A DNA stretch of 61,550 bases from a virus (IMGVR_UViG_3300027833_001904:1-61550); one strand, 5' to 3'. Shown: positions 367-36,561, counted from the stretch's first letter. Notes: generated by a model from the sequence alone, not told the origin. Program-made: numbers and translations.

Positions 367-620
367 CAAATGTAGTAGTATACAGTAAGCCACATTGTCC
401 TTATTGCGATAAGGCAAAGGCATTACTTGAAAGAATGAATATCGAGTTTGAAGCAAAGATGCTTGATAAAGATTTTACAAGAGAAGATTTAATGGAAGTT
501 GCTCCAAGGGCTCGAACCTTCCCACAAGTGTTTATTAATGGAACAAACATTGGCGGGTATGATCAATTGACAACATACATTGAAACAACTAATTTTAACG
601 GAACAGGATTTACATTATGA
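363..620 (+). CDS. Glutaredoxin
   Basis: CPYC active site, TFPQVFI, IGGY; adjacent to nrdB. Confidence 0.93.
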   Translation: MTNVVVYSKPHCPYCDKAKALLERMNIEFEAKMLDKDFTREDLMEVAPRARTFPQVFINGTNIGGYDQLTTYIETTNFNGTGFTL

Positions 621-913
621 TTATTGAAACACCTTATAAAGTAGGGGACGTAGTAAGTATCAAACTAAGCAGTGGCGAAGAAATGATTGCGAAACTTGAA
701 GAAGAAACAGCAACACACATTTCAGTGAATAAACCACTTATCTTAGTAGCAGCAGAAACAGGCGTAGGCTTATCACCATTTATGTTCACAGTTAGCCCAG
801 CAGCTAAAGTGCGTCTGAATATAAATAGTATTATATGTGTAGTTAAGTCAGCGAAGGACGCCGACACTACATACATCCAACAAACAACAGGTTTGCATTT
901 AGCGAAAGCATAA
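617..913 (+). CDS. Conserved phage protein, possible Sm-like fold
   Basis: VSIKLSSGEEMIAK pattern; translationally coupled ORF. Confidence 0.55.
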   Translation: MIIETPYKVGDVVSIKLSSGEEMIAKLEEETATHISVNKPLILVAAETGVGLSPFMFTVSPAAKVRLNINSIICVVKSAKDADTTYIQQTTGLHLAKA

Positions 914-914
914 T

Positions 915-1205
915 ATGGCAGGAGTTCACAGAAATACAGACAGTCGTCCATGTGGTGCCACAACTTCGGTTAGTGGTCAAGGCACTGTCTATGTCAATAA
1001 TAAATTGTGTAGTGTGAACAACGATCCTAATACACACGGCGGCGGTAATTTAAAAGCCGCTAATCCAAATGTATATGTAAATAACAAACTCGTGGTAATT
1101 TTAGGCAATAGTGCTTCACCAGATGGCTACTGTCCATTACCTGGTGGTAGTCATTGTAATCCTAAAGCCAGTGGCGCCAGTGGCGATACATACGTAGGCG
1201 GATAA
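915..1205 (+). CDS. PAAR-type spike tip protein (T4 gp5.4-like)
   Basis: R-x-x-D-x-x-x-CGA, repeated VYVNN, His/Cys metal ligands, ASGDTYVG end. Confidence 0.85.
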   Translation: MAGVHRNTDSRPCGATTSVSGQGTVYVNNKLCSVNNDPNTHGGGNLKAANPNVYVNNKLVVILGNSASPDGYCPLPGGSHCNPKASGASGDTYVGG

Positions 1206-1206
1206 T

Positions 1207-2490
1207 ATGTCAGATTTTGAAACAGCAGCTAATTATTTAAAGAACACTAATGTTGATTTAGTCACAAGTGCTACAGTAGATGTAGGCACTGGCGAAGTAG
1301 AAACAACCACAACAAGTATGAGTTTAAGAGAAATTATCTGTAGCTTATTAGCTGGTGGCGGAATTAAACTTCCTAACTTACAATTGTGTTTAAAAATTAA
1401 CTTAGGTAGACTATTGGGTATACCAGGAATTCCACCAGAGTTATATAAAGCACTTGCTGAAGCCGATGCAGCATTAGATGAATTTATTGCACATACAAAC
1501 ATTGATAATGTATTGGGTAGACTAAACGCCGCAATTGCAGAATTTGCCGCAATTGCTAACATGATTAATTTTTGTGGAACACCAATTAACCCAAAACCAA
1601 TTCCAAATGTATTAAAAGAAATATTTGGTTCATATCTAGGAGCAGGTAAAAGCATACTAGATAAACTAGGAACTATGTTAGACAGCGATATTGGTGGATG
1701 CACATCAGGTGGTGGATTTAATGCAGGTATATTTCAAAATGGTATCCTTAAATCATTAGGTGATTTAATTACTCAATTTGGTAGTCTTGCAAATGCTCCA
1801 CAGTCAGTAATAGATGGACTAGTTAACGAGCTTAATGCATTTTCATCAGATATGAAAAATCTAGTTACACTTGAGAACAATTTTAGTGGAACAAATTCTA
1901 ATGGTGGCAGTTCATTTGCAGATGCATCTGCACAATCAACACATACAGGTGTTGGAACAGCAATTGATTCAAGCACATTGACATTAGCAAAAGCACAAGG
2001 ACTTGCTGGCTCATTAAAATCTGCATATGATAGTTTAAATGGTTATCCGGTTGATGCAGCAGGTAATAGCATATTTGATTACTTATTAGATGCTCAAATG
2101 TTAGCCAAATTAAAGCAAAATGATTTACCTACAGTTAGTGTAGTGGAAAGAACACCTGTTTATGATTATTGTGGCGTAGTTACTGGATATACAACAGCAC
2201 CAGATTATAGTGTGCCAAAGAGCGAAGGATCACCGGTAACAGTATCTTCTGCACCTGGAATAACAGGATTAGCAGAAAGTGGAACAGTAAGTAATAATTC
2301 ACCAACAACAACAACAAATTTAACTAATCCAAATCCAATGATAAGAAGTAGTGTTCCAGCTACTAATATTGGTAGTTCGGGCGATAAAAAAGGCGACATA
2401 GCATCTGATTCATCATACATATACATAGCAAATGCAGATTATGACGGATCTACTGCAATATGGGTAAGAGCTGCACTCAGTTCTTGGTAA
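1207..2490 (+). CDS. Putative virion/baseplate-associated protein
   Basis: Follows PAAR gene; Gly/Ser/Thr-rich; C-terminal GDKKGDIASDSSYIYI...WVRAAL motif typical of tail proteins. Confidence 0.55.
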   Translation: MSDFETAANYLKNTNVDLVTSATVDVGTGEVETTTTSMSLREIICSLLAGGGIKLPNLQLCLKINLGRLLGIPGIPPELYKALAEADAALDEFIAHTNIDNVLGRLNAAIAEFAAIANMINFCGTPINPKPIPNVLKEIFGSYLGAGKSILDKLGTMLDSDIGGCTSGGGFNAGIFQNGILKSLGDLITQFGSLANAPQSVIDGLVNELNAFSSDMKNLVTLENNFSGTNSNGGSSFADASAQSTHTGVGTAIDSSTLTLAKAQGLAGSLKSAYDSLNGYPVDAAGNSIFDYLLDAQMLAKLKQNDLPTVSVVERTPVYDYCGVVTGYTTAPDYSVPKSEGSPVTVSSAPGITGLAESGTVSNNSPTTTTNLTNPNPMIRSSVPATNIGSSGDKKGDIASDSSYIYIANADYDGSTAIWVRAALSSW

Positions 2491-2534
2491 AACCCACAAA
2501 TTCTAAAAAAAACTAAAAAAACAAGACATTTCGG

Positions 2535-2563
2535 TTGACAAAAGGCTATCTTACTGTTATATT
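2535..2563 (+). promoter_or_regulatory. Sigma70-type early promoter
   Basis: TTGACA-17nt-TATATT; CAAGACAT motif just upstream (2522-2529). Confidence 0.75.
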
Positions 2564-2599
2564 ATATATAATTGTATTAATTAAAGAAACGATACGAAT

Positions 2600-2887
2600 A
2601 TGAGAGCAACAATATATAACGATGGAATTAAGCGAATCAATGCTAAAATTGAAGTTCCGCTTAGTAATGATGATGTGGGTGATTATATCCTTAGTGCCTT
2701 AGTTGGCGACTCTATAGATTTAAGAAGCCTGCAACAAATGAATAAACGACAACTTTTGCATCTTGCTAAAGAAGAAATTAAAACGTTTGGGACAGAAAAC
2801 CCAAGAGAACGTGTTAATGGAATCGATAACGATACACAGGTTATTGTTAAAAACTACGTGAAACAAATGTTTCCAGAATTACAATAA
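2600..2887 (+). CDS. Hypothetical protein
   Basis: 95 aa ORF downstream of promoter. Confidence 0.7.
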   Translation: MRATIYNDGIKRINAKIEVPLSNDDVGDYILSALVGDSIDLRSLQQMNKRQLLHLAKEEIKTFGTENPRERVNGIDNDTQVIVKNYVKQMFPELQ

Positions 2888-2900
2888 ACAGGAGATTATT

Positions 2901-3443
2901 ATGAACAAACTTGCATACGGAATTATATTAACAACTATACTATTTGCACAATCAGTATTTGCGGAATCAAGAACAGACACAGTAATAAACGTAGATGGCT
3001 ATGTAGTAGATACCCAAACATTGACCGTCAAGACTCAATTAGTGGAAACACCAATTAGAACTTGTAATATTGTAAATGTTCCAATTTATGGAAATACTGG
3101 TAAAACACAAACCGGAGAAGTATTAGGTGGCGCAATTATAGGCGGCATACTAGGTAACCAAGTAGGCGGTGGCAAAGGTAAAGATGCTGCAACTATACTA
3201 GGTGCAATTTTAGGGGCAGACTTTGCCAATAAAAAAGGTGGACAACAAAAAATTGTTGGATACAAACAAGTAGAGCAATGTGAAGTCACATACGAAAAAA
3301 CATACCAAACTATAACCAGATGTGATGTAACAGTAAGTATACCTGCAATAAAAGGAGTTACACATACTTATGTAACTGATACTTGTCCTGCTAATAATAC
3401 CAAAGTTAAACTTGTTACAAGTTTAAGCATACAGCGAAGATAA
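2901..3443 (+). CDS. Glycine-zipper 2TM exported protein (YcfJ-like)
   Basis: Signal peptide; GAIIGGILGNQVGGGKGKDAATILGAILGA; AGGAG RBS. Confidence 0.85.
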   Translation: MNKLAYGIILTTILFAQSVFAESRTDTVINVDGYVVDTQTLTVKTQLVETPIRTCNIVNVPIYGNTGKTQTGEVLGGAIIGGILGNQVGGGKGKDAATILGAILGADFANKKGGQQKIVGYKQVEQCEVTYEKTYQTITRCDVTVSIPAIKGVTHTYVTDTCPANNTKVKLVTSLSIQRR

Positions 3444-3463
3444 ATAAAAAGTAGAAAGAATAT

Positions 3464-3539
3464 GCCGGTATAGCTCAGTTGGTAGAGCAACTGATTTGTA
3501 ATCAGTAGGTCACGTGTTCGAATCATGTTACCGGCACCA
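3464..3539 (+). tRNA. tRNA-Thr(UGU)
   Basis: Cloverleaf; ACTGA-TTTGTAA-TCAGT arm; GTTCGAATC; encoded CCA. Confidence 0.96.
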
Positions 3540-3635
3540 GATATAAAGAAAAGGCGATTGGACTGCCGGGCTGCAAAATGCCTTAAAACGGAAATACAAA
3601 AGAGAATTAATACCAGTAAACATTTAAACAGTCAT

Positions 3636-3711
3636 GGGGCTGTAGCTCAGCTGGGAGAGCACTGCCTTTGCAAGGCAGGGGTCAGGAGTTCGATCCTCCT
3701 CAGCTCCACCA
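3636..3711 (+). tRNA. tRNA-Ala(UGC)
   Basis: GGGGCTG/CAGCTCC acceptor with G3:U70; CTGCC-TTTGCAA-GGCAG; CCA. Confidence 0.97.
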
Positions 3712-3720
3712 TTAAAACTA

Positions 3721-3750
3721 GGCCCTCATCTTAAACGGTGAGGGCTTTTT
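3721..3750 (+). terminator. Intrinsic terminator
   Basis: GCCCTCATC-TTAAAC-GGTGAGGGC followed by TTTTT. Confidence 0.85.
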
Positions 3751-3764
3751 ACTTTAATAAAGTC

Positions 3765-3793
3765 TTGACTTAGTATAAAAACTGTTATATAAT
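3765..3793 (+). promoter_or_regulatory. Sigma70-type promoter
   Basis: TTGACT-17nt-TATAAT. Confidence 0.75.
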
Positions 3794-3836
3794 GTAAGCA
3801 ATTAATAACAACAGAAAAGTAAAAGGGAGAAAATTA

Positions 3837-4490
3837 ATGTCTGAACTAATGAGTAAGAAACTAAAAGACAGCTATGAAAATGGATTTGATAATACAGCAG
3901 GATCGAAAGAGATCTTTGGAACATGGACTACATACGAAGAAGATATTAATGCAGGGCAATGGCTTGCTCCTGTTAAAGTAGCTGCATATGTCCAGCACAA
4001 CTTTAATCCTAGTGTTAGCATTGGTGATATTGCGTGTGGAACTGGATTAGTTGCAAAACTATTAAAACCAGGCTTTTACACTAACATTGATGGATATGAT
4101 ATTACAGTAGAGTTCTTAGAAAAAGCTAAAGAACATTATAACAATACAGCATACAATGACATTTGTGCAGAAGCATTGCCTAAACAATACGAGGTAGTTA
4201 CTGCAAGTGGAGTATTTGCACCAGGTCACCTAAGTGCATTGCCAAGTAAAAACATTGCAGATAGTTTGCTTCCAGGCGGAACATTTGTTATGAGTAATCC
4301 TAGTAACGCACACGGACACGCATTAATCCCATCAGACTATTCATATATGGAAACAGGTGGATGGAATGCACAACAAGATCTTGTAATGATTTATGAATCA
4401 GATCCATATCCTAGTTTGTTACACAATGGACATCAACACTACCACAGGGTTCGTGCATGGAAACGAGCGAAAGATGTTGCAGTTCTGTAA
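3837..4490 (+). CDS. Class I SAM-dependent methyltransferase
   Basis: Motif I DIACGTG, DGYDI, ASGVFAPGH, LLPGG. Confidence 0.88.
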   Translation: MSELMSKKLKDSYENGFDNTAGSKEIFGTWTTYEEDINAGQWLAPVKVAAYVQHNFNPSVSIGDIACGTGLVAKLLKPGFYTNIDGYDITVEFLEKAKEHYNNTAYNDICAEALPKQYEVVTASGVFAPGHLSALPSKNIADSLLPGGTFVMSNPSNAHGHALIPSDYSYMETGGWNAQQDLVMIYESDPYPSLLHNGHQHYHRVRAWKRAKDVAVL

Positions 4491-4493
4491 GTG

Positions 4494-4501
4494 AATAAAT
4501 A
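4494..4501 (+). promoter_or_regulatory. Late promoter-like TAAATA element upstream of the 4525-12016 operon
   Basis: AATAAATA matches the core found before many late genes; AGGA RBS follows. Confidence 0.55.
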
Positions 4502-4524
4502 CACATATAATATAGGATACAACA

Positions 4525-5943
4525 ATGAGACCTTTTTACTTACTCCCTAAAAACGACAGCCCAGCATTATCTGACAAATACAGATTACTTACATACGAAC
4601 AACTTATTGCTGAAGTGTTAGCATGTAAGAAAATTTTAAATGCCAGCGGCTATACTAAAGACCACAGAATTGCTATCCAAGGCACTAATAGAGTTGAGAC
4701 TTGGATTTGGATGATTGCGGCATCGTTTGATGGATCAGGAACAACACTTCCATGGAAAGCATCTGAGTATACAGAGAATGCAAGACTAAAGAAAAACAAT
4801 GCTAACGCAGTTGTTAGGTTAAACCACGATGGCACATTAAACGAAATCGATCACAAACACTTTGAAAAGTCAGTAACACAAGAAAAAGAATACATGTGCC
4901 AATACTCAAGTGGCACAACAAACAGATATGGTATTCCAAGTTGCTACAGTGGTGTATATGAACTAGATGAAAACAATTGGGGTGGTGATGGTCGCCAAGC
5001 AATTGCGTATAGAGTCAAAGGCAATCCAGACTTTGCTAACCCAGAAACAAATAGATTCCTAAACATTATGCAACCATATATTCCGTGGTCGCAGGACCTT
5101 ACATATCACACACTGTTAATGGGTGGTTGGGTGCATGTTATTAACGACCCAGACGAATATGATAGTGCATGTGAAATACAAAAGCCTACATGGGTTATTG
5201 GATTTCCATTATCATTGCAAAAAGTTATGGATACCAACAAAGGAACACACAAAGTTAATACTGTAGAATTTACTGGCGGCATTGTAACTACTAAGCAACA
5301 AGAAGATTGGCAAGAGTTTTTTGACCCAGATCAATATATGAATGTATATGGTGAAGGAAGTGTAGGAACTTATTGTGTTAACTTTGCTAAAAAAGGCGAA
5401 GATATTAGACATGTAGGAAAGCCATTAGATTGGTTTATTCATTCAGGCGGTGAAATGCGTATTGGCGAAAAAGGAACAGTAGAAGTGCGTGGACAGAATA
5501 CACCTGGTGACGAATGGTGGGATTCAGATGACCTAGCAGAGATAACACCCGAAGGCAATTATAATATTATAGGTCGTGCAAACGAAGTAATTATCAGCAG
5601 AGGTGGAGCAAATATCTTCCCATATGAGATAGCAGAATTTATTGGACAACATCCTAAAGTAAATGATTGTTATTTGTATAAGATAACAGTAGATGATGAA
5701 CGTGGCGAAATGCCTGGTTGCGTATACAGTGGTGATGTTGGCCCTGAACATTTTTATAACTATGTTAAAAAGAAGATAGAAGGATATCAAGTTCCAGTTA
5801 AGTTCACAAGACTAAGTGACACAGTTCCTAAATTGCTACAAAGCAAAGGCGACAAGTTTCAAGCACCAAAGATTAATTTATTTTTTATGAATGAAACTCT
5901 GCAAGAAAACAGTGAGTGGATTGTTGATGAATACAAAGTCTAA
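4525..5943 (+). CDS. Adenylate-forming (AMP-binding, acyl-CoA ligase-like) enzyme
   Basis: YSSGTT loop, NVYGEG, WDSDD, GRANEVIISRGGANIFPYEI. Confidence 0.8.
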   Translation: MRPFYLLPKNDSPALSDKYRLLTYEQLIAEVLACKKILNASGYTKDHRIAIQGTNRVETWIWMIAASFDGSGTTLPWKASEYTENARLKKNNANAVVRLNHDGTLNEIDHKHFEKSVTQEKEYMCQYSSGTTNRYGIPSCYSGVYELDENNWGGDGRQAIAYRVKGNPDFANPETNRFLNIMQPYIPWSQDLTYHTLLMGGWVHVINDPDEYDSACEIQKPTWVIGFPLSLQKVMDTNKGTHKVNTVEFTGGIVTTKQQEDWQEFFDPDQYMNVYGEGSVGTYCVNFAKKGEDIRHVGKPLDWFIHSGGEMRIGEKGTVEVRGQNTPGDEWWDSDDLAEITPEGNYNIIGRANEVIISRGGANIFPYEIAEFIGQHPKVNDCYLYKITVDDERGEMPGCVYSGDVGPEHFYNYVKKKIEGYQVPVKFTRLSDTVPKLLQSKGDKFQAPKINLFFMNETLQENSEWIVDEYKV

Positions 5944-7798
5944 TGTATATCTAGCACAATTTAGTTTAACCATAACTCCTGGCAACATGATTTTCATGCC
6001 GTATGCAGTATCATGTGTGTGGAGTTATGCACAGACACACGACGATATTCGAGACAACTATGAAATGAAGGAAGTATTTTTTGAGAAGATACCTCCAAAG
6101 GAAGTAGTAAAAAAGTTAGACAATCCTAAAGTATTTGCATTTGGTTGTTATATTTGGAATTGTAATTACACAGACGAAGTTGCAAAACTAGTCAAAGAAA
6201 AGTTTCCAGAATGTTTAATAGTATATGGTGGCCCACAAATACCAATAACAGCACACGATGAATGGTGGAGCAATCACTCATATGTTGATGTTGTTATATA
6301 TTACGAAGGTGAGAAGCGTTTCACACGAGTGTTAAGATGCAGTTCCAAAGAAGAAATGTCAATGATACCTAATGTAAGTGTTAACTTTGATGGTGACTGG
6401 ACATTTAACTTAGACTATAAAGCAGTTGGTAAAGATAGAATAAAAGACTTAGAACAAATACCAAGTCCGTATCTGTTAGGTATGTTTCCTAATCCACAGC
6501 AAAATTGGATTCCAATTATGGAAACTACAAGAGGTTGTCCATATGCCTGCACATTCTGTGACTTGGGTGCATTGAATCATAATAAAGTTTACAAGACTGA
6601 ATTGGGCAGAGTGCAAGAAGAACTTGATTGGTTAGTAGAAAATAAACTATCAAGTTTCTATTATGTTGATAACAACTTTGGATTATTTAAAGACAGAGAT
6701 GATACTATTGTTGATATGGTTATTGCAAGTAAAGAAAAGCATGGATACCCAAAGAGTTTCTTTGTTAACTGGGCAAAGAATCATAAAGAAGAATTTATTA
6801 ACATGGCAAAGAAACTGTATGATGCAGATGTGCTACAGTCAATAACATTAAGTCTACAAACTAGAAACGAAGAAGCACTAGAAATTATTAAACGTAAAAC
6901 TATGAACATCAACGATATTAGTTTTTATACTGATATGTGTAAACAAGTAGGCTTACCTTACAGCACAGAACTTATGCTGGGCAACCCAGGTGAAACTGTT
7001 GATAGTTGGAAAGATGGATACATAGAAGTAGTTGCCGACGGTATCAGTTGTGACATATACGCAGTAGCACTACTACCAGGCGCAGAACTGGCATCAGAAG
7101 CAAGTTTAAAAGAACATGGAATAGAATATGAACCAGTTCAGTTTCCAGGCGTAGCCAACCCAAAGTATCGTCCAGTAAAAGAATGGATGAATCAAATTGT
7201 AGCTACTAAGTATATGAATAGAAACGAAATGCGTGAGATGTTTGAATGGACTTGGTGCACCAGATTAGGACACGAGTTCAACTTTACACGTGAACTAGCA
7301 AATTATTGTGAGAAACACAATGTTGCTACAATGCGTGAGTTCTACGACAGCTTCTATGAGTATATAAATACTAGTAAGGGTATATTAAACAAGTATTATA
7401 CAGATGTATTGTTGTTTAGAACTGAAAAGTATGAATACACTCTTGCACTAAAAAATATACAATTCAGAGATAATTTAAGTTTAGAAGATAGAGAACTTGT
7501 TAAGACAGACATTAAAGCATTTGCAAGCCAATATAATCTACCTAATGATTTAATTGAATATAATGACGCTAAAATGTTCAGAGGTGATGTAAATTATCCT
7601 TGGCGTATTAAGTTTGATTATGACTTCTTAAATGATATAGATCAAAAAGTAGAAATTGAATTTACAGAAACAGGACACGGTAGAGCTACATCAACCCGAG
7701 ATAATCTACTAGTAGGAACAGATACAGTAGATGAAGAATATAAAAGAAAGAAGAGAATGGTATGCACCAGGACGAATGGGACAATAGTGAGTTTGTAA
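5927..7798 (+). CDS. B12-binding radical SAM enzyme
   Basis: N-terminal cobalamin-binding-like domain (FGCYIWN, VYGGPQ, YEGE); ETTRGCPYACTFC; GNPGET. Confidence 0.9.
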   Translation: MNTKSNVYLAQFSLTITPGNMIFMPYAVSCVWSYAQTHDDIRDNYEMKEVFFEKIPPKEVVKKLDNPKVFAFGCYIWNCNYTDEVAKLVKEKFPECLIVYGGPQIPITAHDEWWSNHSYVDVVIYYEGEKRFTRVLRCSSKEEMSMIPNVSVNFDGDWTFNLDYKAVGKDRIKDLEQIPSPYLLGMFPNPQQNWIPIMETTRGCPYACTFCDLGALNHNKVYKTELGRVQEELDWLVENKLSSFYYVDNNFGLFKDRDDTIVDMVIASKEKHGYPKSFFVNWAKNHKEEFINMAKKLYDADVLQSITLSLQTRNEEALEIIKRKTMNINDISFYTDMCKQVGLPYSTELMLGNPGETVDSWKDGYIEVVADGISCDIYAVALLPGAELASEASLKEHGIEYEPVQFPGVANPKYRPVKEWMNQIVATKYMNRNEMREMFEWTWCTRLGHEFNFTRELANYCEKHNVATMREFYDSFYEYINTSKGILNKYYTDVLLFRTEKYEYTLALKNIQFRDNLSLEDRELVKTDIKAFASQYNLPNDLIEYNDAKMFRGDVNYPWRIKFDYDFLNDIDQKVEIEFTETGHGRATSTRDNLLVGTDTVDEEYKRKKRMVCTRTNGTIVSL

Positions 7799-8316
7799 TA
7801 GAACTCCCACAACTAGAGTTTAATCCAGAAACCTTCCTGGAACAGATGCAAGGAATAGAACTTAAAGACTACGTTAGTGCGTATGGCAAGCCCACTGGCT
7901 TGCAAGTAAGTTATGCACCAGAATTAATTCAAACACAAATTGTAAAACATTATCTTGATATTTTTAAAGACTTTAAGATTCCAATAGGTGATATAGAAAA
8001 CAATCATGCACACGGCGATGGATTATATGGGTGGAGTTATATTAAAACAAAAGCAAACGCTCCGTTGCAAAGACACACAGACGCAGTAAGAGAAGCAAGT
8101 ATTACATTTCCGTTAACATTCCCACAGGAATTGAATTTTTTTAGTAGCAAAGAATCAACCGAAAAATTAGTATATGAATATAAACCAGTTATTGTGATAA
8201 TAAATGCAAAACACAAATGGCATTCAGTTGATCCAAGCAATGAGCCTAGATTACAGTTTCAACTTGATTGTTTTAATCCATGGGATGAGATTAAAGAACT
8301 AGTTAAAGCATTATGA
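7762..8316 (+). CDS. Putative 2OG-Fe(II) oxygenase-fold protein
   Basis: HTD...WHSV...PRLQFQL (HxD...H...R). Confidence 0.65.
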   Translation: MHQDEWDNSEFVIELPQLEFNPETFLEQMQGIELKDYVSAYGKPTGLQVSYAPELIQTQIVKHYLDIFKDFKIPIGDIENNHAHGDGLYGWSYIKTKANAPLQRHTDAVREASITFPLTFPQELNFFSSKESTEKLVYEYKPVIVIINAKHKWHSVDPSNEPRLQFQLDCFNPWDEIKELVKAL

Positions 8317-8948
8317 ATCCAGTAATTGTAATTAATGTAAACATGGCGTCTAAAGGACACCAAATTGGAAGATTAGTATCAAGTTGTAGTAATATTACTT
8401 GGTATGATCATCCTGGCAATGGAAACAATCCATGGGAACCATGTAATAATATATTAAATGCAGAACTAAGTGGCTTTCATTACGATAGACGATTTGCAGA
8501 CAACAGCACAATACCACCTGTGTTAGATTTTAGTAGACGCAGTGGATTGCCAGAGCGTCCAGTTATAGAATACAAAGATAGATTGCTAACATACATAACA
8601 CACAGCTATTTAGATGAGTCACGTGAGTATTTTAATGGTAAACATCTTGTGGTGTTACACAAAGACCTAGACAGGTTTATGAATACATCATGGAAATTTA
8701 GAGTAGGTAAAACAAAAAGACTTGTTAGTGAATTATACACAGAAGAACAAATAGTAGAAATGCTAAACAGCATATACGATAATTACAAAGACAATATAAC
8801 AGAGGATGATTTTGTTATTGAATCAATAGATGAACTATTTGATCAAGATATTTTTAAAAACATGTGTAATAAATTAGAATTAGAGTTTAATGAAGATAGA
8901 TATATACAAGTGAAGAGATTTATAAATGCAAACACACTTATTAACTAA
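8313..8948 (+). CDS. Hypothetical protein, possibly a divergent sulfotransferase/P-loop-like fold
   Basis: Coupled ORF; N-terminal beta-loop-helix pattern (VINVNMASKGHQIGRLV); fold assignment weak. Confidence 0.45.
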   Translation: MNPVIVINVNMASKGHQIGRLVSSCSNITWYDHPGNGNNPWEPCNNILNAELSGFHYDRRFADNSTIPPVLDFSRRSGLPERPVIEYKDRLLTYITHSYLDESREYFNGKHLVVLHKDLDRFMNTSWKFRVGKTKRLVSELYTEEQIVEMLNSIYDNYKDNITEDDFVIESIDELFDQDIFKNMCNKLELEFNEDRYIQVKRFINANTLIN

Positions 8949-9462
8949 AGAAGTATTCCCACAGTTGGAAACTTTCTTTGATACTGCAAAGGAATTAAAG
9001 TATCTAAACAATGTTAGTAAACGTGCTATGAAATACGACTGGTGTTTAGACTTTGGTGGAATGTGGCATTGTGCAATAGATGATAATAATCGCATGGTAA
9101 GTTTAGCAGGCTGTCATCCATTACCAGAAGTTGATGACAATGCTTGGAGAGTAATGTTTAGAGGAGTTCAAATACCAGGAGATTATGGATTTGGATTAAG
9201 TAAATATCATATGAGTGCATTAACATGGAGATTACTATTGCCATTGCAATTAGAATATATCGATAACGCAGATGCATATATAACTACTAACATCTCACAT
9301 GATGCAAGTGGTAAAATGAATAAGACACACAGATTATTTCAACAGTTAGAGAAACTGGGTATGGTTGAACATTATAATGACATGGAACTATATCACACTG
9401 ATCAAAGTGTTTGGAAACTAAACAAAGAGAAATATATGGAGGTAAGAAGCAATGTGGTTTAA
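8926..9462 (+). CDS. Putative GNAT-like acyltransferase
   Basis: MVSLAGCH...WRVMFRG pattern; size consistent with a GNAT. Confidence 0.5.
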   Translation: MQTHLLTKEVFPQLETFFDTAKELKYLNNVSKRAMKYDWCLDFGGMWHCAIDDNNRMVSLAGCHPLPEVDDNAWRVMFRGVQIPGDYGFGLSKYHMSALTWRLLLPLQLEYIDNADAYITTNISHDASGKMNKTHRLFQQLEKLGMVEHYNDMELYHTDQSVWKLNKEKYMEVRSNVV

Positions 9463-9730
9463 TTGGAAACATCTAAGAGATGCAGAATATCTTAGTAAAA
9501 GCAAACGTGAAAATGGAGTAGTGTTATACTTCAAACACATGTGGGTTGGATTTAGAGAAGCAGGAAAACAATTGCTAATGGCTATTGCTAGTGTATTACA
9601 TGCAATATTTCCACCATTGTTTGATTTCAAATTACTTGATATAGTAATTGATCAAACTATAGGCTTACATAAGTTTTTGCCAGATCATCCAAGTTGGCAG
9701 AGACTAAAAGACGAATTAAAGAAGAAATAA
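9452..9730 (+). CDS. DUF6356-like small protein
   Basis: HL...YFKHM...ASVLHAIFPPLF pattern. Confidence 0.65.
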   Translation: MWFNWKHLRDAEYLSKSKRENGVVLYFKHMWVGFREAGKQLLMAIASVLHAIFPPLFDFKLLDIVIDQTIGLHKFLPDHPSWQRLKDELKKK

Positions 9731-9731
9731 T

Positions 9732-10430
9732 ATGAACTTAGACAATCTTAAATTAATACTGGAACACGGAATCACAATTAACACAAGTGGAACAACTGGT
9801 GAACCAAAAAGCATAACACAGACACCTGAGAAGATGAAATTTGCAGACGAGATTGCAATTGATAGTCAACAGTTGACTAAAAATTCTAAAATATATACAG
9901 TTTGCAAAATACAACATGCAGGTGGATTACTAGCACAAACATTACCAGGTATTAGACTTGGAGCAGAAGTTGTTATAGACGATTTTAATGCATATAGATG
10001 GGTAAGAGAAATAAACAAGTATACACATTCGCATCTTACACCTAATCATGCAAAAGCAATAATGAAAACCAAAGGCTGGCGATTATTAGATTTAACTGGC
10101 GTATGGATAACATGTGGAAGTGATCCGGTTCCTTGGGATACTATTAGTGCATTTGTAGAAAAAGGTGCAACATTTATGGCAAATTGGGGTATGACAGAAA
10201 TTGGTCCATGTGCTATTAATACTGTATTTGAAACATTAGACAAAGTAGAAGAATATAAACAAGAATTAACTATTGTAGGCGATAGATTCTATTGCGATAC
10301 TACAGTAGGACCAGATGGGCAATTATATGTTAAAGGTGATATAAGCACATATGGAGATAATTGGTTTGCTACAAAAGATGTAGTAAAAGAAGAAAATAAC
10401 AGCTATTATTACGTTAAAAGGGCGTATTAG
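9732..10430 (+). CDS. Short adenylate-forming (AMP-binding) enzyme
   Basis: TSGTTGEPK, WGMTEIGP, WFATKD; lacks C-terminal subdomain. Confidence 0.8.
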   Translation: MNLDNLKLILEHGITINTSGTTGEPKSITQTPEKMKFADEIAIDSQQLTKNSKIYTVCKIQHAGGLLAQTLPGIRLGAEVVIDDFNAYRWVREINKYTHSHLTPNHAKAIMKTKGWRLLDLTGVWITCGSDPVPWDTISAFVEKGATFMANWGMTEIGPCAINTVFETLDKVEEYKQELTIVGDRFYCDTTVGPDGQLYVKGDISTYGDNWFATKDVVKEENNSYYYVKRAY

Positions 10431-10484
10431 ACGCTCAAATACCGTCATACAAGCACGAATTACACATAGGAAACAAATTATAAC

Positions 10485-11270
10485 ATGGCAATATTAGAAT
10501 TAGAAGTGTTAAAAGTTCAACACTACACAGATGACTTATTTCACTTTACAATAGCAAGAGATCCAGGATTAAGATTCAGAGATGGAGAATTTGTAATGAT
10601 TGGACTGAATAATTGGTCTGAAAAGCTACAAAAGAATAAACCAATTATGCGAGCATACAGTGTAGCAAGTCCTAACCACCAAGACACTATTGAATTTTAT
10701 AGTATTAAAGTGCAAGACGGACCATTAACAAGCAGATTACAGCATGTAGTTCCAGGTGACAAAATATTAGTTAATGATAAAGCAGTAGGCACACTAGTTA
10801 ATGCAAATATAAAACCAGGGCGTAATTTATATTTACTAGCAACAGGCACAGGTGTAGCACCTTTCTTATCATTAGCACGTGGAGTAGACACATACGAATA
10901 TTATGACAACGTCATTTTAGTGTGGGGTGCAAGAACAGTTGCAGAACTTCCATTTGATGCAATGTTTAGAAATCTAAACGAAGATGAAATATACCAACAT
11001 GTAACAGAAGGTAAATTTAAGTTTTATCCTACTGTCACAAGACAGTCATATGAAAACGAAGGTCGTGTAACAACAGCAATGTATGACGGCAAAGTGCAAG
11101 AAGCATTGGATTTGCCAATGCTAGATCCAGAACATGACAGAATTATGATATGTGGTAGCATACCAATGAATGAAGAATTAATAGAATGGCTAGAAGTATT
11201 AGGATTTGAAGAAGGTAATAATAAGTATCCAGGAACTTATGTAGTTGAAAGGGCGTTTGTAAGTTCATGA
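10485..11270 (+). CDS. fpr: Ferredoxin/flavodoxin-NADP+ reductase
   Basis: RAYSVAS, GPLTSRL, ATGTGVAPF, MICGS, VERAF. Confidence 0.95.
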   Translation: MAILELEVLKVQHYTDDLFHFTIARDPGLRFRDGEFVMIGLNNWSEKLQKNKPIMRAYSVASPNHQDTIEFYSIKVQDGPLTSRLQHVVPGDKILVNDKAVGTLVNANIKPGRNLYLLATGTGVAPFLSLARGVDTYEYYDNVILVWGARTVAELPFDAMFRNLNEDEIYQHVTEGKFKFYPTVTRQSYENEGRVTTAMYDGKVQEALDLPMLDPEHDRIMICGSIPMNEELIEWLEVLGFEEGNNKYPGTYVVERAFVSS

Positions 11271-12016
11271 TTTATACTGAGTTACTTGATAAGCACAGAA
11301 ATACTATTGTAAATAACTTTGAACCAGCACGGTGCGAAGAAAATGTATTTACTGAACATGACTTACATCAATTAACTTTGTATCAATTTCAAAATGCAGA
11401 TGATTTGCGTTGGACAGACTCAAGTAGCAATATCCAACCTATATTAAATGTTACACGACTGTTTGAATACTTTCCATGGATGCAAGATAAATTTGAATCT
11501 ATACTAAAACATGATTTTAGTGAACATCACACAGGTAATTATTATATTACTACACAGCTACATGACGCACACGTAGATCTAATGACAGAAGCTGAAACAG
11601 AATTTGACTGGGCAGAAAACTTAATACCATACAAAAGTTGTGTAATACCATTGGGTATCACAGCAGGCGCAGAAGCCTACACAGCATTTTTTAAGCAACG
11701 ACATATTGGAACGAGCATAACATTTGATCGTGTTGGACAAAGTTCACAAGACAAAAGCATGTATGAAATTGCACGTGAGTATCCAGATCTAGAAACAATA
11801 GATACTCCAACACTGGAAAATACAGATTATATATTCCCACACATAGATGAGGGTAATATATGTGACTTTGATTTGGAAGCGGTGTTTCCATTTCAACCCG
11901 GCAATGCATTAGTATTTGATGCATGCCAGTTACACGCAAGTTGTGTAACACGTAGACGACCAAACTTTAATTCACTGAAAACAGGAATAAATATTCAGTT
12001 TTATATTAAGGTATAA
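11267..12016 (+). CDS. Putative 2OG-Fe(II) oxygenase-fold protein (paralogue of 33727-34494)
   Basis: HDAHVD...FDACQLHAS...K-x-GINIQFY. Confidence 0.6.
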   Translation: MIYTELLDKHRNTIVNNFEPARCEENVFTEHDLHQLTLYQFQNADDLRWTDSSSNIQPILNVTRLFEYFPWMQDKFESILKHDFSEHHTGNYYITTQLHDAHVDLMTEAETEFDWAENLIPYKSCVIPLGITAGAEAYTAFFKQRHIGTSITFDRVGQSSQDKSMYEIAREYPDLETIDTPTLENTDYIFPHIDEGNICDFDLEAVFPFQPGNALVFDACQLHASCVTRRRPNFNSLKTGINIQFYIKV

Positions 12017-12024
12017 ATATTAAT

Positions 12025-12111
12025 ATGGGGTAAAACAAAATTGGCCCGGGTAGAGATTCATTGCTTGCATGTCAACACTCTTAGGACGATAGCTATCGGA
12101 CAGTTTTACCC
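12025..12111 (+). ncRNA. Candidate structured RNA after late promoter TATAAATA (12012-12019)
   Basis: GGGTAAAAC/GTTTTACCC closing stem with internal hairpins; GC-rich intergenic stretch. Confidence 0.5.
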
Positions 12112-12133
12112 TAATTAATTACAAGGAAAAAGT

Positions 12134-12886
12134 ATGCACACATTATATTTGGTGGTAAGCCAAAGTTGTATTAACCAGATGGAAATTCCATATCTGCTAA
12201 ACAACAGCCCAGATTTACATGGAACCAGTGGTCCTGGACAACATTGGGCAACATATGAATTAGATGGAAAACAAGTAGATCACGAACCAGGTCCATTAGG
12301 CAAGATTAGAGTGCATGATGATTATTGGAATCTAGACGATGAAGATAAGGAATGGTATAATTTTGATATTAGAAATACTATGGAAATTACCACAGAACAG
12401 TTAGATGGATTACTTAATATTAGTAACAAGTATTCTATTGCATTATTATTACACGCACAAAATTACAATGATGTGTGGAAATGGAGTAGATCGAAAAATG
12501 TTATTATAGTTAATCCAATAATTAGTCAATGGAAAGATGCAGTTCACACCTGGGCAGCAAGAGAATATAATTACCTAATGGAAGATGATAAAAATGCAAA
12601 TTTCAGTGGGTATGATCATGTTTGGCCAGGAACACAAGAAGTTGCAGAAAAGTTTGTAGAACGTATGGATTATGATAGTGAGATCAAAGAACTATTATCC
12701 GATAGACTTATAAAACAACCACAGTGGATGACAACTCCAGAAATATATACATTATGGGATAGTATTGGGATTACATCTCCAACAAAAGAATGGATCGATT
12801 CATATATTAATGATTACAACGAACATCAAGAATATGACATCGACGCAGTTAATGAGTTAAAGGACGCATATGATACAACTAGATAG
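12134..12886 (+). CDS. Hypothetical protein
   Basis: 250 aa ORF with AAGGA RBS. Confidence 0.75.
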   Translation: MHTLYLVVSQSCINQMEIPYLLNNSPDLHGTSGPGQHWATYELDGKQVDHEPGPLGKIRVHDDYWNLDDEDKEWYNFDIRNTMEITTEQLDGLLNISNKYSIALLLHAQNYNDVWKWSRSKNVIIVNPIISQWKDAVHTWAAREYNYLMEDDKNANFSGYDHVWPGTQEVAEKFVERMDYDSEIKELLSDRLIKQPQWMTTPEIYTLWDSIGITSPTKEWIDSYINDYNEHQEYDIDAVNELKDAYDTTR

Positions 12887-13280
12887 TATAGATACAGAAT
12901 CACAATTAAATACAACAACAACAATAGACTTTTTACCGTTTGATAACACACTTAAAATTTATGTGTTTAAAAAAGAACATGCAGTTCAGCTTAGTTTTAA
13001 ATTATCAGAACAGGCAGTATTTACTGACAGAGTAAGTATTAAAGATATGGAAATTATTTGTCAAGAATGGAACAATGGTGGTGTAAATGGAATTGAGACT
13101 TGGATGGGAAAGGTATATTGGGAAGAACGTAAAGTCGGACCAAGACCTGACTGCAAACCAGCAAGTTTTGTTGCTATACAATTTAATAAGTGGAACTTCC
13201 GACTTACAATTAAAGAAATGGAAGATGTTATTAATGAGTTCAATAAGCAGTTAAAAGGCGACAATCATTGGGATGAATGA
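12870..13280 (+). CDS. Hypothetical protein
   Basis: Coupled ORF with AAGGA RBS. Confidence 0.7.
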   Translation: MIQLDSIDTESQLNTTTTIDFLPFDNTLKIYVFKKEHAVQLSFKLSEQAVFTDRVSIKDMEIICQEWNNGGVNGIETWMGKVYWEERKVGPRPDCKPASFVAIQFNKWNFRLTIKEMEDVINEFNKQLKGDNHWDE

Positions 13281-13789
13281 TAAATAGCTATATGGACATA
13301 TATAAAAAAGACAAGGTAGTAACATATGCATTAACAACCGCATTGGTGTTGTTACTCGGTAGCCTTGCCTGTATGTTTTATTCATATGTTAAATTACAAC
13401 AAGCATATCCTTTAGAAAACCTACGTGGTGCAGTTATACAACCAATAGCAACAGATGACGATATGTTAGAGTTTCAAGGAACATATGATAGATATGTAAA
13501 GTGTAATATGCTCAGATTTGATGTGCATCTATACAATGAAGAAACCCAAGATATTATTACGTTAACACCAGTTCATTTAGCAAAACCAGTTCCAATCATT
13601 CCAGAACCAGGACTAGACATAAAAACACAATTTGCATTATTCATGCCAAAAACAATATATCCAGGCAAATGGAAACCTTCATTTACAGGTTTTTACATAT
13701 GTCAACTAGGAATATTTGTAGATCAAAAAACACAAGTAATTAACCCAGAAGCGTTTATAATACAAGCGGCCCCCATTACAAAAGAATAG
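13277..13789 (+). CDS. Membrane-anchored hypothetical protein
   Basis: N-terminal hydrophobic helix. Confidence 0.7.
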   Translation: MINSYMDIYKKDKVVTYALTTALVLLLGSLACMFYSYVKLQQAYPLENLRGAVIQPIATDDDMLEFQGTYDRYVKCNMLRFDVHLYNEETQDIITLTPVHLAKPVPIIPEPGLDIKTQFALFMPKTIYPGKWKPSFTGFYICQLGIFVDQKTQVINPEAFIIQAAPITKE

Positions 13790-13790
13790 G

Positions 13791-13819
13791 TTGACAAAAC
13801 CAAGACTTCTTGTTATAAT
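13791..13819 (+). promoter_or_regulatory. Early promoter, variant of the CCAAGAC family
   Basis: TTGACA-AAACCAAGACTTCTTGT-TATAAT. Confidence 0.8.
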
Positions 13820-13848
13820 ATACACTATTATGATAAATGGAGAACACT

Positions 13849-14016
13849 ATGTTTCTAGGTAAAATTCAAAAGAAAAAGTTATTTGAAAAGCTATTTGCAA
13901 AAGAGCAAATGAAAATTAAATCAACTTCCCCAACATTAAGCAAAAAGTCAATAAATTTATTAGCCGAATGGGCAGCAGAAAATCACATTCAGAATTTAGA
14001 GAATCATGGCGAATAA
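13849..14016 (+). CDS. Small hypothetical protein (55 aa, not in ORF track)
   Basis: GGAGA RBS; ATG..TAA read manually (MFLGKIQKKKLFEK...). Confidence 0.6.
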   Translation: MFLGKIQKKKLFEKLFAKEQMKIKSTSPTLSKKSINLLAEWAAENHIQNLENHGE

Positions 14017-14218
14017 CATAGAAGAAGCGTTTACTCCTAAAGACACGTGTAGCATTTGCGATAGTCCATATGATGAAGACGCAGGTGGAATACAAGGACA
14101 CTTTGGTATATTACCAGTTACGTTTTGTGAATGGTGTTATAGTAGCATCTACAGTATGGTCGAACAAGACATCAGAGATAATTTAGAACCAGAGCCCTGT
14201 GGAATGAGTAGAAAATAA
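14006..14218 (+). CDS. Small zinc-finger-like protein
   Basis: CSIC...CEWC. Confidence 0.65.
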   Translation: MANNIEEAFTPKDTCSICDSPYDEDAGGIQGHFGILPVTFCEWCYSSIYSMVEQDIRDNLEPEPCGMSRK

Positions 14219-14233
14219 AGCATAAATAAAACT

Positions 14234-15238
14234 ATGCTTTACTCAACCATAAACAGTCTTCAATTTGATTTAAACGTTACTTGCAATGCATATTGCCCTG
14301 GTTGCCATAGACATACAATGGTAAACGGCGAGATGTATATGAATCCATTCCTACCATTTAATACTAGTCTTAATATTGATATAGTAGAACGTGTAATGGA
14401 AAACCCAAGACTTAGCGATAATGTAGAAGTAGACTTTGTAGGATTAGTAGGCGAGCCTATTGCTCATCAACAATTTCTAGAGATTATAGATATTATCTAT
14501 AAGCATAGACCAAATGCAAGAGTTAATATTCACACAAATGGTGGATTGCGTTCCGTAGAGTTCTTTACACAGCTTGCTAAAAAATTAAAAGATAAATCTC
14601 ATCAAGTGCAATTTTCAATCGATGGATTAGAAGATACAAACAGTTTATATCGTGTAGGTGTAAATTGGGATAAAGTAATGGAAAATCTACAAGCATTTAT
14701 AGATGCTGGTGGTCGTGCAGTATGGAAGTTTTTGCTTTTTCCATACAATAAACATCAAACAGAAGAAGCAAGACAATTGGCATTTTCAATGGGAGTTAAA
14801 AACTTTCGTCCAGAGAGAAATAGAGACGAAGGACAAGAACTGTATACACGTTATATGAAAGCATATAAAAAGTTTCACCCAAAAACACTAGGTGAAAAAG
14901 GCCATGCACAGGACAAAGGATATGACATAAATCAGTTTAACGAATCCCAAGGCATTGCAAATAGATGCTTTGACGAAGATGCAATTTATATAAATTACGA
15001 AGGCGTAGTATTACCATGTTGTATGTTTAATTCTGGATTAACAGATGAATCATATATGAAAGAGATGGTCCCATATATTAAAGGAAATACTTGCCATCAA
15101 AATGATGATGAAAATTGGAATAGCCTATATCATAATACATTAGAAGATGTTATGAATAATAGCTGGTGGGACAAGTTATATGGCGATTTAGACACAACTC
15201 CATGCACCGTTTGTGTGCATTCTTGCGGAATTCATTAA
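14234..15238 (+). CDS. Radical SAM protein with SPASM/twitch domain (paralogue 1)
   Basis: CNAYCPGC, GEP, HTNGG, FSIDG; C-terminal C...PCC...CxxCxxxC. Confidence 0.9.
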   Translation: MLYSTINSLQFDLNVTCNAYCPGCHRHTMVNGEMYMNPFLPFNTSLNIDIVERVMENPRLSDNVEVDFVGLVGEPIAHQQFLEIIDIIYKHRPNARVNIHTNGGLRSVEFFTQLAKKLKDKSHQVQFSIDGLEDTNSLYRVGVNWDKVMENLQAFIDAGGRAVWKFLLFPYNKHQTEEARQLAFSMGVKNFRPERNRDEGQELYTRYMKAYKKFHPKTLGEKGHAQDKGYDINQFNESQGIANRCFDEDAIYINYEGVVLPCCMFNSGLTDESYMKEMVPYIKGNTCHQNDDENWNSLYHNTLEDVMNNSWWDKLYGDLDTTPCTVCVHSCGIH

Positions 15239-15266
15239 AAAAGACGAAAAAAGATGCATTTTTCGG

Positions 15267-15295
15267 TTGACAACCAAGACATCTTAGTGTATATT
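15267..15295 (+). promoter_or_regulatory. Repeated early promoter TTGACAACCAAGACATCTT (copy 1)
   Basis: TTGACA-ACCAAGACATCTTAGTG-TATATT. Confidence 0.85.
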
Positions 15296-15327
15296 GTATA
15301 TATAAGCTAATAAAACAGGAGTTGAAA

Positions 15328-15666
15328 ATGCAAAACGAAATCCAAACATTGATCCAAAAATGTAAAGTAGATTATACAAAGTTTGTTACTGCTAGTGATC
15401 GTGGAACACCAGATCCAGATAGTTACTTTGGTAAAACACTTGCTAACTTTGAAAATAGTTTCACTATTAAAGAAGGCAAAAAGTATATTAAGATTATACG
15501 TGATAATGGTGTATGGGGCTTTATTGTTAAAGAAGATGGTCCTAAGTTTAAAAAAGGTGATATCCTTAAAGCTGCAGGTTGGAATGCTCCAGCAACAAAT
15601 GCCGCACGTGGTAACATTTTTGAAGACTTTAGTGTTGCGTGGACAGGTCCACATTACTTGAAATAA
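15328..15666 (+). CDS. Conserved phage hypothetical protein
   Basis: GKKYIKI...VWGFI...GDILKAAGWNAPA...RGNIF; AGGAG RBS. Confidence 0.8.
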   Translation: MQNEIQTLIQKCKVDYTKFVTASDRGTPDPDSYFGKTLANFENSFTIKEGKKYIKIIRDNGVWGFIVKEDGPKFKKGDILKAAGWNAPATNAARGNIFEDFSVAWTGPHYLK

Positions 15667-15676
15667 GGAAAAGCAA

Positions 15677-15829
15677 ATGAGTAAAACAGGAAACTGGGTA
15701 TTAGAAATGCAAGAAGATGCGTATGATATGACTCTTGCAGAATTTATTAAAAAACACGGCGAAAGCCAATCATCACTTTGGCATCAAACACAAGAAGAAG
15801 CCGAAGAAGGGGTTCTTATTGATGAGTAA
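15677..15829 (+). CDS. Small hypothetical protein (50 aa, not in ORF track)
   Basis: AAGGA RBS; MSKTGNWVLEMQEDA... read manually. Confidence 0.65.
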   Translation: MSKTGNWVLEMQEDAYDMTLAEFIKKHGESQSSLWHQTQEEAEEGVLIDE

Positions 15830-16082
15830 GGCTATTCAGCGTTACCTCAAACCCACACTATTCAAGCCTAAGGGTTCTGTATTCGAAGGCTTGATATGGA
15901 AACAACCTAACTCAAAAGGCACAGACACATATGATGTTGTATGCACCGAAAAAGGTTTTACTTGTGATTGTCCAGGCTTTACATTCCGTGGCAAGTGCAA
16001 GCACAGTTTAGAAGTGCTAACACGAGTAGAAACAGCATTAGATGACAAGCACCCACAATACAGATGGGAGTTTGCACAATGA
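15822..16082 (+). CDS. SWIM zinc-finger protein
   Basis: CDCPGFTFRGKCKH; likely start ATG 15822. Confidence 0.8.
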   Translation: MSKAIQRYLKPTLFKPKGSVFEGLIWKQPNSKGTDTYDVVCTEKGFTCDCPGFTFRGKCKHSLEVLTRVETALDDKHPQYRWEFAQ

Positions 16083-20025: not shown

Positions 20026-20026
20026 A

Positions 20027-20617: not shown

Positions 20618-20652
20618 ACATAGGTTAGTTATATTTTTGTATAAATACTAGT

Positions 20653-36227: not shown

Positions 36228-36230
36228 AGG

Positions 36231-36261
36231 TTGACATTTTATACACTTTCGTGTATAAATA
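36231..36261 (+). promoter_or_regulatory. Overlapping sigma70 and late promoter for tmRNA
   Basis: TTGACA-17nt-TATAAA, where the -10 is also a perfect TATAAATA. Confidence 0.75.
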
Positions 36262-36266
36262 ACATT

Positions 36267-36560: not shown

Positions 36561-36561
36561 G

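Follow-up and report, generated by a model that had tools for sequence, protein, structure and literature searches.

The stretch of DNA analysed here (IMGVR_UViG_3300027833_001904:1-61550, hereafter the window) is an entire IMG/VR virus record of 61,550 bases, classed as linear and estimated to be ~17% complete, from which a genome of ~350 kb follows; its source is an uncultured marine jumbo phage. From 3837 to 13789 it carries a run of genes that all lie on the + strand and meet at overlaps of 4-37 nt or across gaps of 1-117 nt. A first-pass annotation of 3837-12886 had recognised this tight coupling of enzyme genes and taken the run for a single, apparently late-expressed tailoring pathway. 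The genes are of the kinds it named, and the mix of enzymes does resemble that of a tailoring pathway, but synteny in relatives shows that the run comprises, rather than one pathway, a mosaic of three separately inherited gene sets, here called Modules I, II and III, which appear to be transcribed together. The main finding is a cassette of four genes, specific to phages and exchanged between them, whose key enzyme is a TokK/CysS-like cobalamin-dependent radical S-adenosylmethionine (SAM) methylase; the cassette stands beside a widespread, partly host-derived module. The genes of the run are as follows.

Module I (3837-8316)
3837-4490, + strand: MT_A, class-I SAM-dependent methyltransferase (five Pfam methyltransferase models, E 3e-6 to 2e-4)
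4525-5943, + strand: ANL_B, divergent adenylate-forming (ANL) ligase (Pfam AMP-binding 47.7 bits, cut-off 29.9)
5927-7798, + strand: rSAM_C, cobalamin-dependent radical SAM methylase, TokK/CysS/KedN5-like (Pfam Radical_SAM and B12-binding)
7762-8316, + strand: D, predicted 2-oxoglutarate (2OG)/Fe(II) oxygenase of prolyl-hydroxylase/AlkB-like fold (H105/D107/H154/R163 invariant in 6 sequences)
Module II (8313-10430)
8313-8948, + strand: E, of no known family, possibly sulfotransferase-like (104 metagenome homologues, none with a Pfam domain)
8926-9462, + strand: F, GNAT-fold acyltransferase-like protein, by structural model
9452-9730, + strand: G, small DUF6356 protein with a hydrophobic helix (Pfam DUF6356 25.1 bits, cut-off 24.4)
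9732-10430, + strand: H, mini adenylate-forming enzyme (Pfam AMP-binding 56.3 bits, profile positions 170-376 of 384)
Module III
10485-11270, + strand: Fpr-like ferredoxin/flavodoxin-NADP+ reductase (NAD_binding_1 38.8 bits, cut-off 22; PRK10926 E 2.2e-33)
11267-12016, + strand: J, probable 2OG/Fe(II)-type oxygenase, on weak evidence (H102/D104/H223 invariant in 29 sequences)
12134-12886, + strand: K, without a Pfam, PHROG or NCBIfam match
12870-13280, + strand: L, without a Pfam, PHROG or NCBIfam match
13277-13789, + strand: M, without a Pfam, PHROG or NCBIfam match

The identities first proposed for the methyltransferase, the B12 radical SAM enzyme, the DUF6356 protein and Fpr were borne out by Pfam and NCBIfam matches. 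D, E, F and J have no match in Pfam, PHROG or NCBIfam, and their assignments draw on structural models, conserved residues and distant profile matches, given below. No paralogy was found within the pairs D/J, E/K or ANL_B/H by BLASTP or hhalign.

Separate inheritance of the three gene sets

Profile searches with rSAM_C recovered nine distinct viral contigs encoding enzymes 41-97% identical to it. Homologues of MT_A and ANL_B were present in all of these (9/9), and D lay downstream of the radical SAM gene in each of the seven loci that extend far enough (7/7). Gene order differs between loci: it is methyltransferase-ANL-radical SAM-D in the window and ANL-methyltransferase-radical SAM-D in six loci, while locus L004 has two tandem radical SAM genes with the methyltransferase 8 kb off, and in L011 the ANL gene is duplicated in tandem. 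One metagenome relative, P0028 (836 aa), is a radical SAM enzyme (46% identity) that carries a C-terminal homologue of MT_A (32% identity over 188 aa, E 2e-27); the occurrence of such fusions in some relatives implies that the two enzymes are functionally tied.

Comparison with the relative L008 locates the exchange. The two sequences share 81% DNA identity over window positions 1-3714 and 9439-15832, and between these, over 3715-9438 (MT_A to F), they align only in patches of 66-70%. The proteins that L008 encodes in this segment are 28-42% identical to those of the window, the core proteins at about 41%, and are reordered and partly on the opposite strand. To the left the variable block ends at the tRNA/terminator, and to the right at the start of G. 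Module I is an exchangeable four-gene cassette, swapped whole between close relatives.

Two of these variable regions hold further genes. L008 has a nicotinamidase inserted in its segment; the gene had been considered as an ‘isochorismatase’, and hence as a clue to an aryl-acid precursor, a candidacy rejected on the nicotinamidase match (E 1.7e-51). In the richest cluster, at 621-6570 of L011, the additions are one Sulfotransfer_2 protein, one aminotransferase-like protein, a further 2OG oxygenase, a radical SAM protein and, beside F-H, an Asp/Asn beta-hydroxylase-like protein; they fall between and around F-H and the core.

Module II is inherited apart from this cassette. In record G002, F, G, H and E lie ~140 kb from the Module I core. 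Of 73 viral loci found with F, 71 have H no more than 8 kb away, 40 have E and 22 have G, compared with 3/73 for rSAM_C; G, or a shorter related DUF6356-like ORF (open reading frame), occupies the gap between F and H in phage loci. A complete genome of 342.6 kb (G006; terminal repeats, 100% complete) has F-H-E and Fpr, and rSAM_C was not found in it by the same search that recovered the enzyme in both positive controls. Module II is thus a separate and far more widespread phage module, occurring elsewhere without Module I.

Fpr, in its turn, is present in 5/5 related phage records, far from both modules; it belongs to the general redox equipment of this phage group, and the suggestion that it serves as the dedicated electron donor of the radical SAM enzyme falls on the same observation. 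K, L and M are kept beside Fpr and J in the close relatives L141 and L148, and K adjoins Fpr in G007 and G008, one of which also has a weak J-like match.

A search with rSAM_C of 50,697 GenBank phage records gave one partial match only (24% identity), F and H had none by tblastn in GenBank phages, and no DNA nearly identical to the window was found by megablast in the same 50,697 records. In marine metagenomes near-identical DNA is common, with 14 runs containing at least half of the sampled words.

Enzymes and possible chemistry of Module I

The closest solved relatives of rSAM_C, by PDB profile, are TokK (E 9.9e-90) and CysS (E 1.5e-62). The N-terminal cobalamin-binding domain, the CxxxCxxC core and part of the C-terminal domain align with both enzymes, and with a single sequence as query TokK aligns to residues 22-481 (E 5.4e-62); the last ~140 residues differ, aligning with neither. 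The reading frame opens at 5891, and homologues begin at the Met at 5927. Pfam Radical_SAM is matched at 43.1 bits (cut-off 29.5), and the cluster motif CPYACTFC provides the expected CxxxCxxC arrangement, with C204, C208 and C211 invariant in 13 sequences. The Pfam B12-binding score, 28.5 bits, lies under the cut-off of 32.1; the same region aligns with the cobalamin-binding domains of TokK and CysS. Against the NCBIfam KedN5 family the enzyme scores 220.5 bits (E 3.2e-65), short of the cut-off of 700, and it is therefore a relative of that family rather than a member by the model. In all, 725 homologues were collected.

Cobalamin radical SAM methylases carry out some of the hardest alkylations in natural-product chemistry. 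TokK and CysS both methylate iteratively, on pantetheinylated substrates (PMC12846815), and in cystobactamid biosynthesis CysS is assigned to the synthesis of isopropoxy-para-aminobenzoic acid (pABA) together with the pABA-coenzyme A (CoA) ligase CysL, the hydroxylase CysC and the O-methyltransferase CysF (PMC7966384). The four enzyme roles of this alkoxy-pABA set (PMC7966384, PMC12846815), namely acid-activating ligase, hydroxylase, SAM methyltransferase and cobalamin radical SAM methylase, are those found in Module I.

It is because of these four shared roles, CysL/CysC/CysF/CysS, that the following account of Module I is preferred here, within the three-set mosaic, as the best explanation, held tentatively and with a little less than even confidence: the cassette would activate, hydroxylate and O-/C-methylate a carboxylic acid. 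ANL_B would activate the acid as an acyl-adenylate and then form a thioester or amide; the oxygenase D would install a hydroxyl group, which MT_A would methylate; and rSAM_C would methylate an unactivated carbon once or several times, so that methoxy, for example, became ethoxy or isopropoxy, or methyl became ethyl or isopropyl. Cobalamin and low-potential electrons would be supplied by the host, and in this phage Module II may accept or transfer the product.

The parallel has its limits. CysC is BoxB-like, whereas D is predicted to be a 2OG oxygenase; there is no non-ribosomal peptide synthetase or carrier protein beside Module I; and, unlike TokK/ThnK of the carbapenem pathways and CysS of the cystobactamid pathway, rSAM_C is phage-borne and linked, sometimes fused, to a class-I methyltransferase. 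Homology between the cystobactamid set and Module I is demonstrable for the radical SAM enzyme only, and the likeness is one of function, not membership.

Of the other three enzymes, MT_A has METTL27 as its top PDB match (E 3.5e-6). ANL_B retains the A7 Asp, an A8 motif GR...RGG..P.E and the conserved Lys449, and across 7 sequences SSGT, GR..E, RGG..P.E and K449 are conserved; its best NCBIfam and PDB matches are MenE and 4-chlorobenzoate-CoA ligase, in the C-terminal part only. D was modelled with AlphaFold on six homologues (pLDDT 78, the model's own confidence measure), and 256 PDB chains match the model at E<=1e-3, foremost PHD2, a bacterial prolyl 4-hydroxylase (P4H) and AlkB; with an HxD...H triad and a basic residue in place, the predicted assignment to the 2OG/Fe(II) oxygenases is well supported, and the first of the two HxD...H oxygenases in the first-pass annotation holds by both fold and invariant triad.

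Several findings weigh against the preferred account, whose mechanism is inferred by analogy. ANL_B matches characterised ligases solely in the generic C-terminal part, its P-loop A3, SSGTTxxYG, departs from the usual form in having no GxPK, and A5 reads YG(E/D)G in place of YGxTE. The nearest folds of D are those of protein prolyl hydroxylases and AlkB. A carrier-protein search (PF00550) gave 0 matches in the window, as first noted from the sequence, and its control matched 11/14 genomes; nor does the window, only ~17% of the genome, encode a flavodoxin or a 2Fe-2S ferredoxin. Further contrary evidence comes from cells. Searches of 185,579 species genomes found 547 cellular relatives of rSAM_C. 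The 80 whose loci were kept for neighbour counts, KedN5-like enzymes, share ~30-35% identity with it across as much as 88% of its length and align deeper into its C-terminal domain than TokK does. Most of them lie among nucleotide-sugar and glycosyltransferase genes, not CoA ligases: NDP-sugar (nucleoside diphosphate-sugar) epimerase/dehydratase is the commonest neighbour (44 loci), followed by GHMP kinase, nucleotidyl transferase, DegT aminotransferase and GT2 glycosyltransferases among others. Homologues of ANL_B, MT_A and D occur in 0/80 of these loci, and the cystobactamid parallel is therefore one of enzyme roles, not ancestry. Pattern scans found no cellular relatives of ANL_B or of the phage clade of rSAM_C, which, with the few peptide patterns used, is weak evidence of absence.

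Given on the one hand the nucleotide-sugar surroundings of the cellular relatives and on the other the cystobactamid parallel, a glycan substrate is a serious rival to a carboxylic acid. The cassette might C-methylate, O-methylate, hydroxylate and acylate a sugar that belongs either to a surface polysaccharide or to a glycan carried by a phage component, in which case its swapping would amount to serotype-like diversification. Such a role would fit the hypervariability of the cassette between close relatives, the 4-5 tandem paralogues of the enzyme in some Clostridia metagenome-assembled genomes (MAGs), the Sulfotransfer_2 and aminotransferase-like proteins added in L011, the weak sulfotransferase hints in E and the presence of the nucleotide-sugar GNAT FdhC among the fold matches of F. 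It is nevertheless judged unlikely: in the phage cassettes examined and next to them, no glycosyltransferase, sugar nucleotidyltransferase or epimerase was found, it is hard to see what an ANL ligase would do on a sugar, and the cellular enzymes are distant and share none of the other three genes.

The Clostridia MAG contigs L044, L053, L059, L064, L068, L083 and L096 carry arrays of 3-5 paralogous KedN5-like cobalamin radical SAM genes together with a GT2 glycosyltransferase and, at several loci, an NDP-sugar epimerase and GHMP kinase. Their gene content suggests heavily C-methylated glycans.

The folds nearest to D, which include PHD2 and an EF-Tu-modifying P4H, raise instead the modification of a protein or peptide, virion proteins among them: the oxygenases and the radical SAM enzyme would act on a phage or host protein or on a ribosomal peptide, to which ANL and GNAT enzymes would add an acyl group. 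The Asp/Asn beta-hydroxylase-like gene beside F-H in L011 and three radical SAM paralogues of twitch/SPASM-type similarity elsewhere in the window point the same way. Cobalamin radical SAM peptide methylases do exist, yet rSAM_C matches ApyD and rSAM_ocin_1 only at E 6e-15 and 3e-11 (NCBIfam), far from its similarity to TokK/CysS/KedN5 (E 1e-89, 3e-65). Since, moreover, no precursor peptide or recognition-element protein was seen, there is no sign of late expression and the neighbouring genes are auxiliary rather than virion genes, this explanation is considered quite improbable. For virion proteins in particular, the target favoured in the first-pass annotation, the analysis yielded nothing that speaks for or against, and such a target is unsupported.

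More improbable still, in our assessment, is that the enzymes shape a group attached to the DNA or the tRNAs of the phage. Its model is phage thymidine hypermodification, in which DNA is acted on by enzymes in varying combinations, a radical SAM isomerase and a GNAT acetyltransferase among them (PMC8989533). The cassette adjoins tRNA genes, MT_A has a weak match (E 2.8e-5) to a PHROG annotated as tRNA methyltransferase, AlkB is among the fold matches of D, ThyX lies beside the L011 cluster, and swappable cassettes would fit an arms race with restriction systems. The core enzymes of that chemistry, a 5-hydroxymethyldeoxyuridine DNA kinase and an amino-acid:DNA transferase (PMC8989533), did not, however, turn up among the scanned proteins, though no search was aimed at them specifically, and ‘cobalamin’ and ‘adenylat’ occur 0 times in that paper.

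Modules II and III

The structural model of F (pLDDT 90, from 34 homologues) has 167 PDB matches at E<=1e-3 with TM scores of 0.5-0.6, led by SpeG-type GNATs, and a search of the ESM Atlas for look-alikes by language-model features returned viral N-acetyltransferase clusters. The protein, of which 371 homologues were found, has by this model the GNAT fold, and acyl transfer is predicted; the GNAT-like reading of 8926-9462 in the first-pass annotation is upheld by fold in place of a Pfam match. PDB sequence and profile searches returned nothing for F or E. In the family of E, weak sulfotransferase matches were obtained for 3/34 members (best E 2.5e-4); kinship with the L011 Sulfotransfer_2 protein was rejected, comparison showing no relation.

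H is the second of two enzymes first described as adenylate-forming. Both it and ANL_B match AMP-binding, but H is a mini form of 232 aa that spans A3 to the start of A8 and is without the C-terminal subdomain carrying the A10 lysine. Its conserved motifs are TSGTTGxPK, WGMTE and ATxD, with A3 and A5 canonical, and all 46 distinct phage homologues are 221-283 aa in length. A predicted complex of H with F scored 0.00 in a calculation without controls, which is evidence neither way.

Cells share part of this module. H is 57% identical to a 236-aa ‘AMP-binding protein’ of Ca. Pelagibacter, and 60 cellular homologues (40-61% identity, mostly 44-57%) were found in Pelagibacteraceae, including a complete Ca. 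Pelagibacter genome, Methylophilaceae, SAR116 and marine Gammaproteobacteria. A small G-like ORF lies directly upstream of the H homologue in 31 cellular loci (SAR11, OM43, SAR116, Gammaproteobacteria), so that the ‘AMP-binding proteins’ of SAR11, OM43 and SAR116 resemble the phage protein both in truncated length and in this neighbour. The phage and cellular arrangements differ in the remaining genes: one of the 60 cellular H loci has a detected F and none has E, whereas in phages H is near F in 71/73. By sequence comparison, a G-H core is common to phages and SAR11-type bacteria, and Module II is, on that evidence, predicted to be partly host-derived. The Pelagibacter G-H pair adjoins a short-chain dehydrogenase/reductase (SDR), a cryptochrome/photolyase-family gene and a pyrroloquinoline quinone (PQQ) sugar dehydrogenase. 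In Ca. Pelagibacter sp. Uisw_113 (L187) a DUF6356-like ORF followed by a 236-aa mini AMP-binding protein occupies 5102-6699.

Of the Module III proteins, Fpr carries the FAD- and NAD(P)-domain features expected of the ferredoxin-NADP+ reductase family: RAYS and GTGVAP motifs are seen in its translation, and FAD_binding_6 is matched at 18.5 bits, under the cut-off of 21.1. As PRK10926 is matched at 115.6 bits against a cut-off of 390, the protein is not the E. coli equivalog. J overlaps Fpr by 4 nt. Its best PDB profile match is prolyl 4-hydroxylase at a marginal E of 0.013, and one family member matches WelO5 (E 6e-4); with its triad kept in 29 sequences, J is a weaker case than D for the pair of oxygenases originally proposed.

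Transcription, host and significance

Two sites precede the run.

3720-3747, + strand: intrinsic-terminator-like hairpin after tRNA-Ala (11-pair stem, 6 GC pairs, T-run)
3765-3793, + strand: sigma-70-type promoter-like site TTGACT-17-TATAAT (11/12 consensus positions)

The hairpin is the sole strong + strand terminator of the region and marks the predicted left edge of the transcription unit. No other match to the promoter-like site occurs in the window, where 0.08 are expected; a perfect sigma-70 site comes next at 13791-13819, just past M. A TTGACA-17 site also precedes the first cassette gene in L002 and L008, relatives with the same insertion site, and is absent from that position in four relatives with the cassette elsewhere. 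The run appears, from these predicted elements, to be read from a host-type (sigma-70-like) promoter. Among contigs assembled from RNA libraries, one ends at 3721, those from two studies begin at 3823, those of three studies span the cassette, and cover reaches 12630; such contigs show neither strand nor level and say nothing on timing. The starts at 3823 are a weak hint of a transcript start, against which DNA carry-over in the libraries is possible. No riboswitch or other structured RNA was found at the cassette at Rfam gathering scores.

The late timing inferred in the first-pass annotation came from a TAAATA promoter core. The hexamer is present at 4496-4501, but the window holds 99 copies against 122 +/- 11 expected; since it occurs at chance frequency, and since the run starts behind a terminator with a near-consensus sigma-70-type promoter, late timing is unsupported. 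The surrounding site reads AATAAATA, not the T4-type late motif TATAAATA, of which the window has 6 copies (11.6 expected). Three of the 6 (12012-12019, 20640-20647 and 51088-51095) stand in short gaps directly before gene starts, those of K (12134) and of genes at 20653 and 51119. Should the phage use T4-type late promoters, these three would be better candidates than the 4496 site.

The genes neighbouring the run are auxiliary (ClpP, HAD hydrolase, kinases) and not virion genes. A 69-aa ORF at 3525-3734 is probably no gene, as it overlaps tRNA-Thr (3464-3539) and tRNA-Ala (3636-3711). Other features of the window are listed here.

14234-15238, 17907-18905 and 36607-37650: three radical SAM paralogues (phrog_21308; NCBIfam N_Twi_rSAM E 1e-12 to 1e-17)
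19991-20617: ClpP (E 8e-93)
23810-25009: ClpX-like ATPase
34573-35787: IscS cysteine desulfurase
36227-36588: permuted transfer-messenger RNA (tmRNA) of alphaproteobacterial type (Rfam alpha_tmRNA 96.5 bits; tmRNA_permuted 110.8 bits)
47722-50031: Lon-like ATP-dependent protease (phrog_4871 E 2e-220)

The three radical SAM paralogues and IscS give the impression of a heavy commitment of the phage to iron-sulfur radical chemistry. The window has a GC content of 33-39% and encodes 10 tRNA genes besides the one tmRNA. The alphaproteobacterial type of the tmRNA, taken with the homologues of H in SAR11-type cells, suggests an alphaproteobacterial host of the SAR11 kind. SAR11 is not known as a cobalamin user, which would be a difficulty for a B12 enzyme.

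Literature searches found no paper describing a cobalamin radical SAM methylase within a conserved phage cassette. A more ambitious extension of the preferred account, speculative and as a whole somewhat unlikely, would have a swappable cobalamin iterative-alkylation cassette, read from a host-type promoter in marine jumbo phages plausibly living on SAR11-type hosts, make an unprecedented alkylated acyl group; it would be the first viral B12 radical SAM methylase pathway, and the swapping would stem from an arms race in which a modified metabolite, surface structure or nucleic acid is at stake.

With only four genes, the cassette lends itself to expression and assay, and the swapped alleles of near-identical phages provide natural variants. 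Module II, widespread in uncultured marine phages and with half of it common to SAR11, OM43 and SAR116, points to an uncharacterised host function that phages have copied. If the phage depends on its host for cobalamin, for iron-sulfur supply and for low-potential electrons, infection in the ocean would be linked to the availability of B12.

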